This document shows, piece by piece, positions 1,245 to 13,600 of a DNA stretch of 14,337 bases. The notes under the pieces were generated by a model. That model made no database searches and was not told the DNA's origin. It worked only from the letters and a program-made list of their open reading frames with translations. Within the stretch, counting starts at the first letter, position 1; each line of letters begins with the position of its first letter. Source of the stretch: a virus; UHGV virus genome UHGV-1848636, one strand, 5' to 3'. A program made the translations under genes and the position numbers.

Positions 1245-4925
<3,681 letters not shown>

Positions 4926-8473: not shown

Positions 8474-9052
8474 ATGGCCATAAAAGGTCTTGAGCAGGCC
8501 GTTGAAAACCTCAGCCGTATCAGCAGAACGGCGGTGCCCGGTGCCGCCGCAATGGCCATTAACCGCGTTGCTTCATCCGCGATATCGCAGTCGGCGTCAC
8601 AGGTTGCCCGTGAGACAAAGGTACGCCGGAAACTGGTAAAGGAAAGGGCCAGGCTGAAAAGGGCCACGGTCAAAAATCCGCAGGCCAGAATCAAGGTTAA
8701 CCGGGGGGATTTGCCCGTAATCAAGCTGGGGAATGCGCGGGTTGTCCTGTCCCGCCGCAGGCGTCGTAAAAAGGGGCAGCGTTCATCCCTGAAAGGTGGC
8801 GGCAGCGTGCTTGTGGTGGGAAACCGTCGTATTCCCGGCGCGTTTATTCAGCAACTGAAAAATGGCCGGTGGCATGTTATGCAGCGTGTGGCCGGGAAAA
8901 ACCGTTACCCCATTGATGTAGTGAAAATCCCGATGGCGGTGCCGCTGACCACGGCGTTTAAACAGAATATTGAACGGATACGGCGTGAACGTCTTCCGAA
9001 AGAGCTGGGCTATGCGCTGCAGCATCAACTGAGAATGGTAATAAAGCGATGA
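8474..9052 (+). CDS. Z: Tail completion protein gpZ, 192 aa
   Basis: 192-aa ORF preceded by AGGGGGA, in the lambda gpZ position with matching length and sequence. Confidence 0.9.
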   Translation: MAIKGLEQAVENLSRISRTAVPGAAAMAINRVASSAISQSASQVARETKVRRKLVKERARLKRATVKNPQARIKVNRGDLPVIKLGNARVVLSRRRRRKKGQRSSLKGGGSVLVVGNRRIPGAFIQQLKNGRWHVMQRVAGKNRYPIDVVKIPMAVPLTTAFKQNIERIRRERLPKELGYALQHQLRMVIKR

Positions 9053-9444
9053 AACATACTGAACTCCGTGCAGCCGTACTGGATGCACTGGAGAAGCATG
9101 ACACCGGGGCGACGCTTTTTGATGGTCGCCCCGCTGTTTTTGATGAGGAAGATTTTCCGGCAATTGCCGTTTATCTCACCGGCGCTGAATACACGGGCGA
9201 AGAGCTGGACAGCGATACCTGGCAGGCGGAGCTGCATATTGAAGTTTTCCTGCCTGCTCAGGTGCCGGATTCAGAGCTGGATTCGTGGATGGAGTCCCGG
9301 ATTTATCCGGTGATGAGCGATATCCCGGCACTGTCAGATTTGATCACCAGTATGGTGGCCAGTGGCTATGACTACCGGCGCGACGATGATGCGGGCCTGT
9401 GGAGTTCAGCCGATCTGACTTATGTCATTACCTATGAAATGTGA
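9049..9444 (+). CDS. U: Tail terminator protein gpU, 131 aa
   Basis: 131-aa [34 protein letters not shown]... matches lambda gpU. Its ATG overlaps the Z stop (ATGA). Confidence 0.92.
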
Positions 9445-9451
9445 GGACGCT

Positions 9452-10192
9452 ATGCCTGTACCAAATCCTACAATGCCGGTGAAAGGTGCCGGGACCACCC
9501 TGTGGGTTTATAAGGGGAGCGGTGACCCTTATGCGAACCCGCTTTCAGACGTTGACTGGTCGCGTCTGGCAAAAGTTAAAGACCTGACGCCCGGCGAACT
9601 GACCGCTGAGTCCTATGACGACAGCTATCTCGATGATGAAGATGCAGACTGGACTGCGACCGGGCAGGGGCAGAAATCTGCCGGAGATACCAGCTTCACG
9701 CTGGCGTGGATGCCCGGAGAGCAGGGGCAGCAGGCGCTGCTGGCGTGGTTTAATGAAGGTGATACCCGTGCCTATAAAATCCGCTTCCCGAACGGCACGG
9801 TCGATGTGTTCCGTGGCTGGGTCAGCAGTATCGGTAAGGCGGTGACGGCGAAGGAAGTGATTACCCGCACGGTGAAGGTCACCAATGTGGGACGTCCGTC
9901 GATGGCAGAAGATCGCAGCACGGTGACGGCGACAACCGGCATGACGGTGACACCCGCCAGTGCTTCCGTAGTGAAAGGGCAGAGCACCACGCTGACCGTG
10001 GCATTCCAGCCGGAGGGCGCAACCGACAAGAGCTTCCGTGCGGTGTCTGCGGATAAAACAAAAGCCACCGTGTCGGTCAGTGGTATGACCATCACCGTGA
10101 AAGGTGTTGCTGCAGGCAAGGTCAACATTCCGGTCGTATCCGGTAATGGTGAGTTTGCTGCGGTTGCAGAAATCAACGTCACCGCCAGTTAA
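9452..10192 (+). CDS. V: Major tail tube protein gpV, 246 aa, with C-terminal Ig-like (Big_2-type) domain
   Basis: ATG at 9452 preceded by GAGGA; [31 protein letters not shown]... matches lambda gpV. The C-terminal ~90 residues ([33 protein letters not shown]...VTAS) are Thr/Val-rich beta-strand sequence typical of a Big_2 domain. Confidence 0.93.
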
Positions 10193-10207
10193 TCCGGAGA
10201 GTCAGCG

Positions 10208-10630
10208 ATGTTCCTGAAAACCGAATCATTTGAACATAACGGTGTGACCGTCACGCTTTCTGAACTGTCAGCCCTGCAGCGTATTGAGCATCTCGCCCTG
10301 ATGAAACGGCAGGCAGAACAGGCGGAGTCAGACAGCAACCGGAAGTTTACTGTGGAAGACGCCATCAGAACCGGCGCGTTTCTGGTGGCGATGTCCCTGT
10401 GGCATAACCATCCGAAGAAGACAAAGCTGCCTTCCATGAATGAAGCCGTTAAACAGATTGAGCAGGAAGTGCTTACCACCTGGCCCACAGAGGCAATTTC
10501 TCATGCTGAAAACGTGGTGTACCGGCTGTCCGGTATGTATGAGTTTGTGGTGAATGATGCCCCTGAACAGGCAGAGGACGCCGGGCCTGCAGAGCCTGTT
10601 TCTGCGGGAAAGTGTTCGACGGTGAGCTGA
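10208..10630 (+). CDS. G: Tail assembly chaperone gpG, 140 aa (zero-frame product)
   Basis: 140-aa ORF MFLKTESFEHNGVTVTLSELSALQRIEHL... matches lambda gpG. It contains the slippery heptamer GGGAAAG 18 nt before its stop. Confidence 0.92.
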   Translation: MFLKTESFEHNGVTVTLSELSALQRIEHLALMKRQAEQAESDSNRKFTVEDAIRTGAFLVAMSLWHNHPKKTKLPSMNEAVKQIEQEVLTTWPTEAISHAENVVYRLSGMYEFVVNDAPEQAEDAGPAEPVSAGKCSTVS

Positions 10631-11046
10631 GTTTTGCCCTGAAACTGGCGCGCGAGATGGGGCGACCCGACTGGCGTGCCATGCTTGCCGGGATGTCATC
10701 CACGGAGTATGCCGACTGGCACCGCTTTTACAGTACCCATTATTTTCATGATGTTCTGCTGGATATGCACTTTTCCGGGCTGACGTACACCGTACTCAGC
10801 CTGTTTTTCAGCGATCCGGATATGCATCCGCTGGATTTCAGTCTGCTGAACCGGCGCGAGGCTGACGAAGAGCCTGAAGATGTTGTGCTGATGCAGAAAG
10901 CGGCAGGGCTTGCCGGAGGTGTCCGCTTTGGCCCGGACGGGAATGAAGTTATCCCCGCTTCCCCGGATGTGGCGGACATGACGGAGGATGACGTAATGCT
11001 GATGACAGTATCAGAAGGGATCGCAGGAGGAGTCCGGTATGGCTGA
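10208..11046 (+). CDS. G-T: gpGT tail assembly chaperone fusion made by -1 programmed ribosomal frameshift (join 10208..10612, 10612..11046)
   Basis: Slippery site G_GGA_AAG at 10606-10612 is in the G frame. The -1 frame is open from that point to 11046 (T segment, VFDGELSFALKLAREMGRPDW...) and has no ATG or RBS of its own. The arrangement is the same as lambda G/GT. Confidence 0.85.
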
Positions 11047-13600
11047 ACCGGTAGGCGATCTGGTCGTTGATTTGAGTCTGGATGAGGCCAGATTTGACGA
11101 GCAGATGGCCAGAGTCAGGCGTCATTTTTCCGGTACGGAAAGTGATGCGAAAAAAACAGCGGCAGTCGTTGAACAGTCAATGAACCGGCAGGCGCTGGCT
11201 GCACAGAAAGCGGGGATTTCCGTCGGACAGTATAAAGCCGCCATGCGTATGCTTCCTGCACAGTTCACCGACGTGGCCACGCAGCTTGCAGGCGGGCAAA
11301 GTCCGTGGCTGATCCTGCTGCAACAGGGGGGGCAGGTTAAGGACTCCTTCGGCGGGATGATCCCCATGTTCAGGGGGCTTGCCGGTGCGATCACCCTGCC
11401 GATGGTCGGGGCCACCTCGCTAGCGGTGGCGACCGGTGCGCTGGCGTATGCCTGGTATCAGGGCAACTCAACCCTGTCCGATTTCAACAAAACGCTGGTC
11501 CTTTCCGGCAATCAGTCGGGTCTGACGGCAGATCGCATGCTGGTCCTGTCCAGAGCCGGGCAGGCGGCAGGGCTGACGTTTAACCAGACCAGCGAGTCAC
11601 TCAGCGCACTGGTTAAGGCGGGAGTAAGCGGTGAGGCTCAGATTGCATCCATCAGCCAGAGTGTGGCGCGTTTCTCCTCTGCATCCGGCGTGGAGGTGGA
11701 CAAGGTCGCTGAAGCCTTCGGGAAGCTGACCACAGACCCGACGTCAGGGCTGACAGCGATGGCACGCCAGTTCCATAACGTGACGGCGGAGCAGATTGCG
11801 TATGTTGCTCAGTTGCAGCGTTCCGGCGATGAAGCCGGGGCATTGCAGGCGGCGAACGAGGCCGCGACGAAAGGGTTTGATGACCAGACCCGCCGCCTGA
11901 AAGAGAACATGGGTACGCTGGAGACCTGGGCAGACAGGACAGTGCGGGCATTCAAATCCATGTGGGATGCGGTGCTGGATATTGGTCGTCCTGATACCGC
12001 GCAGGAGATGCTGATTAAGGCAGAGGCTGCGTTTAAGAAAGCGGACGACATCTGGAGTCTGCGCAAGGATGATTATTTTGTTAACGATGAAGCGCGGGCG
12101 CGTTACTGGGATGATCGTGAAAAGGCCCGTCTTGCGCTTGAAGCCGCGAGAAAGAAGGCTGAACAGCAGAGTCAACAGGACAAAAATGCGCAGCAGCAGA
12201 GCGATACTGAAGCGTCACGGCTGAAATATACCGAAGAGGCGCAGAAGGCTTACGAACGGCTGCAGACGCCGCTGGAGAAATATACCGCCCGTCAGGAAGA
12301 ACTGAACAAGGCACTGAAGGACGGGAAAATTCTGCAGGCAGATTACAACACGCTGATGGCGGCGGCGAAAAAGGACTATGAAGCGACGCTGAAAAAGCCG
12401 AAACAGTCCGGCGTGAAGGTGTCTGCGGGCGATCGTCAGGAAGACAGTGCTCATGCTGCCCTGCTGACGCTTCAGGCTGAACTCCGGACGCTGGAGAAGC
12501 ATGCCGGAGCAAATGAGAAAATCAGCCAGCAGCGCCGGGATTTGTGGAAGGCGGAAAATCAGTTCGCGGTACTGGAGGAGGCGGCACAACGTCGCCAGCT
12601 ATCCGCACAGGAGAAATCCCTGCTGGCGCATAAAGATGAGACGCTGGAGTACAAACGCCAGCTGGCTGCACTTGGCGATAAGGTCACGTATCAGGAGCAC
12701 CTGAACGCGCTGGCGCAGCAGGCGGATAAATTCGCACAGCAGCAACGGGCAAAACGGGCCGCCATTGAGGCGAAAAACCGGGGGCTGACTGACCGGCAGG
12801 CAGCGCGGGAAGCCACGGAACAGCGTCTGAAGGAACAGTATGGCGATAATCCGCTGGCGCTGAATAACGTCATGTCAGAGCAGAAAAAGACCTGGGCGGC
12901 TGAAGACCAGCTTCGCGGGAGCTGGATGGCAGGCCTCAAGTCCGGCTGGAGTGAGTGGGAAGAGAGCGCCACGGACAGTATGTCGCAGGTTAAAAGTGCA
13001 GCCACGCAGACCTTTGATGGTATTGCACAGAATATGGCGGCGATGCTGACCGGCAGTGAACAGAACTGGCGCAGCTTCACCCGCTCCGTGCTGTCCATGA
13101 TGACAGAAATTCTGCTTAAGCAGGCAATGGTGGGGATTGTCGGGAGTATCGGCAGCGCCATTGGCGGTGCTACCGGTGGCGGCGCATCAGCGTCAGGCGG
13201 TACAGCCATTCAGGCAGCTGCGGCGAAATTCCATTTTGCGACCGGAGGATTTACGGGAACCGGCGGCAAATATGAGCCAGCGGGGATTGTTCACCGTGGT
13301 GAGTTTGTCTTCACGAAGGAGGCAACCAGCCGGATTGGCGTGGGGAATCTCTACCGGCTGATGCGCGGCTATGCCACCGGTGGTTATGTCGGTACACCGG
13401 GCAGTCTGGCTGACAGCCGGTCGCAGGCGTCCGGGACGTTTGAGCAGAATAACCATGTGGTGATTAACAACGACGGCACGAACGGGCAGATAGGTCCGGC
13501 TGCTCTGAAGGCGGTGTATGACATGGCCCGCAAGGGTGCCCGTGATGAAATTCAGACACAGATGCGTGATGGTGGCCTGTTCTCCGGAGGTGGACGATGA
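11039..13600 (+). CDS. H: Tail tape measure protein gpH, 853 aa
   Basis: 853-aa ORF, the lambda gpH length, preceded by AGGAGG (11026-11031) and overlapping the T end by 8 nt. It has a charged, Ala/Gln/Lys-rich central region and a Gly-rich C-terminal segment (GSIGSAIGGATGGGASASGG...). Confidence 0.95.
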   Translation: MAEPVGDLVVDLSLDEARFDEQMARVRRHFSGTESDAKKTAAVVEQSMNRQALAAQKAGISVGQYKAAMRMLPAQFTDVATQLAGGQSPWLILLQQGGQVKDSFGGMIPMFRGLAGAITLPMVGATSLAVATGALAYAWYQGNSTLSDFNKTLVLSGNQSGLTADRMLVLSRAGQAAGLTFNQTSESLSALVKAGVSGEAQIASISQSVARFSSASGVEVDKVAEAFGKLTTDPTSGLTAMARQFHNVTAEQIAYVAQLQRSGDEAGALQAANEAATKGFDDQTRRLKENMGTLETWADRTVRAFKSMWDAVLDIGRPDTAQEMLIKAEAAFKKADDIWSLRKDDYFVNDEARARYWDDREKARLALEAARKKAEQQSQQDKNAQQQSDTEASRLKYTEEAQKAYERLQTPLEKYTARQEELNKALKDGKILQADYNTLMAAAKKDYEATLKKPKQSGVKVSAGDRQEDSAHAALLTLQAELRTLEKHAGANEKISQQRRDLWKAENQFAVLEEAAQRRQLSAQEKSLLAHKDETLEYKRQLAALGDKVTYQEHLNALAQQADKFAQQQRAKRAAIEAKNRGLTDRQAAREATEQRLKEQYGDNPLALNNVMSEQKKTWAAEDQLRGSWMAGLKSGWSEWEESATDSMSQVKSAATQTFDGIAQNMAAMLTGSEQNWRSFTRSVLSMMTEILLKQAMVGIVGSIGSAIGGATGGGASASGGTAIQAAAAKFHFATGGFTGTGGKYEPAGIVHRGEFVFTKEATSRIGVGNLYRLMRGYATGGYVGTPGSLADSRSQASGTFEQNNHVVINNDGTNGQIGPAALKAVYDMARKGARDEIQTQMRDGGLFSGGGR

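Follow-up and report, generated by a model that had tools for sequence, protein, structure and literature searches.

The overlap between two tail genes of a lambdoid prophage raises the question of whether gene T is reached by ribosomes that slip back one base near the end of gene G, and of what would set the rate of such a slip. The overlap lies in the UHGV virus genome UHGV-1848636, and the window, by which we mean the whole stretch of 14,337 nucleotides that was analyzed, is 100% identical to the chromosome of Escherichia coli isolate DCE7 (NZ_CP090611.1). It spans the Nu1-to-L morphogenesis genes of the prophage, and some part of it is matched by 5,199 of 5,426 complete genomes. Each of the 17 morphogenesis genes, Nu1 through L, is given as a CDS without a pseudogene flag, with L cut by the end of the window. 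On the - strand, the annotation also places a small DUF3950 gene at 133-273, shortly upstream of the gene for the terminase small subunit.

The genes surrounding the site are encoded on the + strand in the order V, G, T, H, which is the lambda arrangement and places the G/T overlap between the major tail and tape measure genes. Gene V (9452-10192) is assigned to the major tail tube protein based on its annotation, PF16461 (E 1.7e-70) and a Big_2 domain. The V open reading frame has 10 more codons upstream of the annotated start at 9452; these reach back to an ATG at 9422, within an overlap with U, and the C-terminal Big_2 Ig-like domain occupies residues 171-249 of this long form. The tail assembly chaperone G (10208-10630; PF06894 Phage_TAC_2, E 2.1e-59; gpG in PGAP) is the 0-frame product of 140 amino acids. 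It is preceded by the Shine-Dalgarno sequence GGAGAG at 10196-10201, with an anti-SD pairing energy of -6.6 kcal/mol and a spacing of 7. The T segment (10612-11046) consists of 144 codons plus a stop in the -1 frame and matches PF06223 Phage_tail_T (E 1.5e-13). Gene H (11039-13600), the tape measure gene by annotation, PF06791 (E 1.2e-69) and PF09718, has an ATG that overlaps the T stop (ATGGCTGA) and an anti-SD pairing energy of -10.3 kcal/mol. The PHROG matches are phrog_42 for G, phrog_39, and the GT-fusion family phrog_32165. The last of these, a family of fused GT proteins, spans the G-T junction, with G aligned to its residues 1-142 and T to its residues 140-285. No solved structures sequence-related to GT were found.

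Within G, the slippery heptamer GGGAAAG occupies exactly 10606-10612 (+ strand), where a preliminary description of the sequence had placed a -1 programmed ribosomal frameshift site. As G begins with the ATG at 10208, its codons include GGA at 10607 and AAG at 10610, so that the phase is G_GGA_AAG, again as described. After the heptamer, the G frame reads TGT TCG ACG GTG AGC (CSTVS) and closes with TGA at 10628-10630. The distance of 18 nt to the G stop given in the description is correct only if the stop codon is included; to the first base of the stop it is 15 nt. The -1 frame opens at 10567 and runs to TGA at 11044-11046, and with the 0 frame closing at 10630 the G/T overlap zone is 10567-10630 (+ strand). 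Counted from 10612, the -1 frame has 144 sense codons, the number claimed earlier. The predicted GT product has 135 + 144 = 279 amino acids, and its junction, ...PVSAGK|VFDGELSF..., was correctly foreseen in the preliminary description (junction peptide of the predicted product: ...AEPVSAGKVFDGELSFALK).

Counted alone, GGGAAAG is found 3 times in the window compared with 1.9 expected, and shuffled sequences contain it at least 3 times in 58 of 200 cases. As the bare count is not significant, we took significance from phase and context. Across the 15 annotated + strand genes, heptamers of the form X_XXY_YYZ occur in phase 7 times in total. Only the one in G, near the 3' end of its gene and six codons away from the stop, has a -1 frame that continues past the 0-frame stop (146 codons), whereas at the other six the -1 frame ends after 3-48 codons, well within the gene. 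The second + strand GGGAAAG, at 4254 in the portal gene, is out of phase. Gene Z contains A_AAG_GGG at 8770-8776, with 48 open codons in the -1 frame, and G_GGA_AAC at 8818-8824, with 32; the portal gene B contains T_TTT_TTC at 3595-3601, with 27. Slippage at these sites in Z and B would yield truncated products.

The correspondence with phage lambda is close. The lambda G/GT locus has the same heptamer, the same phase, the same distance to the G stop, the V-G-T-H order and a 279-residue fusion. G is identical to lambda G at 135 of 140 residues (96%) and T at 143 of 144 (99%), leaving five changes in G and one in T. Over the 117 nt of DNA from 10564 to 10680 there are 3 differences, at 10571, 10588 and 10653, and the heptamer is unchanged; it is also identical in phage 434, whose record annotates a joined GT CDS. 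The settings differ, in that the site studied here is part of a chromosomal prophage and lambda is the reference phage.

For lambda itself we took the experimental facts from reviews and from Maynard 2012, and the primary sources (Levin 1993, Xu 2004/2013/2014) are cited via PMC5009743, PMC3296357 and PMC7618472. According to these papers, the -1 shift at G_GGA_AAG is experimentally established in lambda, with a rate of ~4%, the 0 frame kept by ~96% of ribosomes, and a G:GT ratio of ~30:1 (PMC5009743, PMC3296357, PMC7618472). They also state that the right G:GT ratio is needed for tail assembly and that gpG and gpGT are both absent from the virion (PMC5009743, PMC3296357, PMC7618472). The G portion is described there as binding the tape measure protein H and the T portion as binding the major tail protein V (PMC5009743), and hypomodification of U34 in tRNA-Lys is described as giving more shift and a lower phage yield (PMC3296357).

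We directly observe the sequence, the phase, the architecture of the reading frames, the family membership, the near-identity to lambda and the conservation of the site. The reading of the overlap as a tail-chaperone G-T frameshift, already proposed in the preliminary description, is backed by synteny, protein families, likeness to lambda and homologue conservation. We consider it very probable that the site is the lambda G/GT programmed -1 ribosomal frameshift signal in an E. coli lambdoid prophage, and we found nothing in the sequence that speaks against this explanation. That the signal functions in this particular prophage is suggested by its near-identity to lambda.

An independent T gene would leave the heptamer incidental. 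The preliminary description had stated that T lacks both a start codon and a ribosome binding site. The first part of this statement does not hold, as a GTG is present at 10612, and a program-made list of open reading frames, PGAP and the lambda RefSeq record all begin T there. The second part does: there is no usable Shine-Dalgarno sequence before 10612. The best anti-SD pairing for T is -4.3 kcal/mol at 1 nt from the GTG, which is at the level of the window background (-3.4 +/- 2.6 kcal/mol). Most other real starts in the window range from -5 to -12 kcal/mol, although those of Nu1, B, E and U are no stronger than that of T. Initiation at the GTG is also at odds with the distribution of this codon: only the lambda type has it, other lineages have GTC, GCA or GCC in its place, and the downstream T residues remain conserved. 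The conserved T-frame residues, xFxGELxFxLKLAREMGRPDWRAMLAGM, begin at the codon after the slip site. In the other lineages the first ATG, GTG or TTG is found at codon +11, +17 or +25, within the conserved block. Conservation in the T frame thus sets in ahead of any start codon, and the block is accessible only to ribosomes coming from G.

The GT-fusion family phrog_32165, which spans the junction, and the lambda literature, which gives gpG and gpGT as the products, likewise disagree with a separate T. Based on the Shine-Dalgarno energy and the conservation pattern, independent initiation of T was rejected; in its favor stand the GTG and the use of this codon in annotations, and we regard it as very unlikely. 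The sequence evidence indicates that GTG 10612 is not a credible start and does not rescue an independent-start model, and that the sole translation product to contain T is the 279-residue GT, of which it forms the C-terminal part (join 10208..10612, 10612..11046). The separate T CDS is a gene-caller convention and does not count as evidence. The GTG begins at the last base of the heptamer. Both PGAP for this genome and the lambda RefSeq record NC_001416 give a free-standing T CDS from this codon (10612-11046 in the window; 1216-1650 in locus L001) and no joined GT, while the records of phages 434 and LLS do annotate the G-T join.

The frameshift explanation is supported by the conservation of the heptamer and of the reading-frame architecture across homologues. 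A search of viral contigs with the G protein alone retrieved only loci that are 97-100% identical, a set that informs on invariance and not on divergence. Among 57 distinct G-T sequences (80 near-identical viral contigs and the window), the heptamer never varies, compared with variation at 90 of 839 columns. The divergent set was built from alignments of divergent G and T proteins and comprises the phages VT1-Sakai, PhiR12_1, LLS and HK225 and 19 genomes of Escherichia and other Enterobacteriaceae. All 19 divergent loci (G identity 39-93%) and the 4 phage records have N_NNA_AAG in phase, as G_GGA_AAG, A_AAA_AAG or G_GAA_AAG. From the motif to the last base of the G stop there are 18 nt (6 nt in one case), and the -1 extension is 104-146 codons long. 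In the T family (101 loci), G_GAA_AAG occurs in 96, G_GGA_AAG in 4 and A_AAA_AAG in 1. A pattern scan of 119 loci recovered GGGAAAG in 72 and GGAAAAG in 44, plus three single outliers, AGAAAAG, AGGAAAG and GGGAAAA. Across ~220 related loci, a shift-prone motif ending in A_AAG (A_AAA in one) is found at the same place.

The three outliers, in phase A_GAA_AAG, A_GGA_AAG and G_GGA_AAA, are located in contigs L242 (482-488, +), L243 (2130-2136, +) and L311 (- strand), respectively. L242 and L311 keep full-length -1 extensions; in L243 the T frame is cut to 60 codons, and its mutated heptamer together with the truncated frame suggests a decaying prophage. This contig illustrates how the site in the window could itself be a relic, namely a heptamer without present function in a defective prophage that no longer expresses G and T. 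The window is indeed a chromosomal prophage segment. However, no Nu1-to-L gene in the window carries a pseudogene flag, and G, T and the heptamer are undamaged and differ little from those of functional lambda, so we consider a relic extremely improbable.

Some further features of the homologues were recorded. The G stop ends 6 nt rather than 18 nt past the heptamer in 34 of the 101 T-family loci (TAG in ...AAAAGCCCTAGCC...), which makes the part of gpG added after the slip site dispensable. These loci include the viral contigs L132, L137, L141 and L144-L156, with the heptamer at 701-707, and their stop lies upstream of the predicted stem discussed below instead of abutting it. The C-terminus of lambda-type T (10900-11043 in the window) contains two copies of a motif, LMQKAAGLAGGVRFGPDG and LMTVSEGIAGGVRYG, compared with a single copy in the HK97-, N15- and VT1-Sakai-type T proteins, which are ~30 residues shorter. 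The pair is a tandem duplication, perhaps within the portion of T that contacts V. Finally, G genes 89-100% identical to that of the window (most ~96%, the level of lambda) occur in genome contigs assigned to unrelated organisms (L088-L100, L103, L105-L108, L111 and L113), from assemblies of Neobacillus, Oceanobacillus, Kitasatospora, Pseudomonas, Shewanella, Chromatium, Leeuwenhoekiella, Bradyrhizobium and Enterococcus, among others. The coverage given in the contig names is mostly ~1x (two at ~2-3x and 10x), and some contigs measure ~48.4-48.5 kb. They look like contamination with lambda DNA used as a size standard or spike-in, and not like real prophages.

Conservation also bears on whether the slip would be made by the ribosome or by RNA polymerase, which could produce indel mRNAs by slipping on the GGGAAA run. 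The homopolymers known to trigger polymerase slippage are far longer than the runs found here, which comprise 3 G and 3 A, although the VT1-Sakai variant A_AAA_AAG does contain six consecutive A. Slippage during transcription can look like ribosomal frameshifting, and some sites may have both (PMC5009743). However, the feature conserved across lineages is the codon-phased A_AAG and not the length of a run, and the lambda G:GT ratio responds to thiolation of U34 in tRNA-Lys, which is a translational effect (PMC3296357). We therefore give polymerase slippage next to no probability.

The slip itself, its rate and the roles of the proteins are carried over from the lambda literature, and by analogy ribosomal frameshifting in the prophage would proceed as follows. 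Most ribosomes would pass G_GGA_AAG without changing frame, continue through CSTVS to the stop at 10628-10630 and release the 140-residue gpG. A few percent would slip back one base during the decoding of GGA and AAG, with tRNA-Gly re-pairing from GGA to GGG and the single tRNA-Lys of E. coli (mnm5s2UUU) from AAG to AAA. The slipped ribosomes would then read GTG TTC GAC and onward to 11046, giving the 279-residue gpGT. As described for lambda, gpG and gpGT would both coat the tape measure protein H through their G part, and the T part of the rare gpGT would recruit the tail tube protein V. The slip frequency would in this way hard-wire the G:GT ratio at ~30:1.

Downstream of the heptamer, folding and comparative pairing predict a 3' RNA structure at 10620-10690 (+ strand), a candidate frameshift stimulator. 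It comprises an outer stem of 8 bp (10620-10627 with 10683-10690), an inner GC-rich hairpin (10646-10653 with 10674-10681) and apical pairs (10658-10661 with 10666-10669), all on the + strand and all from the predicted fold. The stem starts 7 nt past the heptamer, and the G stop codon abuts its 5' arm. Folding of 10613-10700 gives a minimum free energy of -38.1 kcal/mol (z -2.7 relative to dinucleotide shuffles). At 10653 the window has C where lambda has T, so that a predicted U-G pair becomes C-G. The same fold is predicted in 5 of 6 divergent relatives (z -2.2 to -4.7), and RNAalifold gives the same consensus; the predicted stem is absent in the Phytobacter-type clade (L124-L128). A search of Rfam found no match within 10400-10900 at E <= 1.

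Comparative pairing is consistent with the prediction. Among 53 distinct sequences, 90.7% of cells are paired, compared with 29-40% in controls with the partners shifted by 1-3 columns. The pair 10621-10689, which is G-C in 19 and A-U in 29 of these sequences, ranks first in mutual information among 690 variable column pairs (0.994 bit; the next has 0.81). One of its bases is the first position of a Gly/Ser codon, and the other, 68 nt away, is a synonymous third position in an Ala codon. Neighbour-joining trees of the flanking sequence imply 2-3 independent switches at this pair, and when viral contigs were scanned with a pattern open to any of the four combinations, G-C was recovered 81 times, A-U 37 times, G-U once and A-C not at all. 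An apical pair (columns 55-63) also covaries (GC 23, CG 12), but with 14 unpaired cells it was not counted as strong evidence. Third-position entropy is 0.95 bit in stems versus 1.29 bit in non-stems (p = 0.06). Compared with synonymous recodings, the native sequences of 10 out of 12 lineages have z values between about -1.2 and -2.9, and those of the other two have z ~0. These modest values indicate that the protein sequence itself supplies much of the folding potential, through the GC-rich codons that it requires, and for this reason we do not claim the structure as established.

Reviews state that no stimulator seems to be involved in the lambda frameshift (PMC5009743). In the E. coli reporters of Sharma et al. 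2014, bare G_GGA_AAG shifted at 0.277%, the addition of the moderate IS911 stimulators brought the value to 3.80%, and the IS3 pseudoknot brought it to 43% (PMC4066793 Table S3); the ~4% of lambda matches the moderate-stimulator value. In the same study the gpG cluster is flagged 'N' for a Shine-Dalgarno element and 'Y' for structure (PMC4066793 Table S4), so a conserved hairpin had already been recognized by computation. In the literature consulted, we found no experimental test of this hairpin. We infer that the structure at 10620-10690 may help to lift the slip rate to the few-percent level. The specific proposal is that the G/GT frameshift is not free of stimulators and that the conserved structure 7 nt downstream may raise the slip from ~0.3% to ~4%; we put this forward tentatively, holding it to be somewhat less probable than its opposite. 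If it acts as a stimulator, the structure would be positioned at the mRNA entrance while the slip codons are decoded.

Other frameshift systems provide points of comparison. The HK97-/N15-type site G_GAA_AAG, for example in phage LLS, is associated with homologous G and T and has the same distance of 18 nt to the last base of the G stop. It also resembles the window in the motif at the N-terminus of T and in the stem predicted downstream, but its G is just 39-50% identical to that of the window. The phage LLS record annotates a 'minus-one programmed translational frameshift site GGAAAAG'. The P-site codon of this type is GAA, and re-pairing to GGA leaves a mismatch at the second position; G_GAA_AAG alone has been rated unfavourable for slippage in vitro (PMC6924986). 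The heptamers of E. coli dnaX and of IS911/IS3 belong to the same A_AAG-ending class, decoded by the single E. coli tRNA-Lys. These systems combine X_XXA_AAG with a hairpin or pseudoknot on the 3' side and, in some cases, an upstream Shine-Dalgarno element; their stems start about 5-9 nt past the heptamer, and the predicted spacing of 7 nt in the window is the usual one for a stimulator. The published efficiency of dnaX is ~50%, compared with ~4% for lambda G/GT. The site in the window has no evident upstream Shine-Dalgarno-like element, and the structure is a candidate for the stimulatory role. The E/E' tail chaperone frameshift of phage P2 occurs in a contractile-tail phage, and its reported efficiency is 2-3 fold higher (PMC5009743).

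The G/GT site is already known and is the textbook lambda recoding signal. The site itself brings nothing new: it repeats a recoding signal that is among the best known, and lambdoid prophages such as this one number in the thousands in E. coli. A practical point concerns annotation: as T is annotated as free-standing, the 279-residue GT, the actual product, is missing from many protein sets. The predicted downstream structure is a lead that could settle a mismatch in the literature, in which bare G_GGA_AAG shifts at ~0.3% in reporters whereas lambda reaches ~4%, supposedly without a stimulator. If the lead is true, the structure would matter even more for the weaker G_GAA_AAG found in most relatives.
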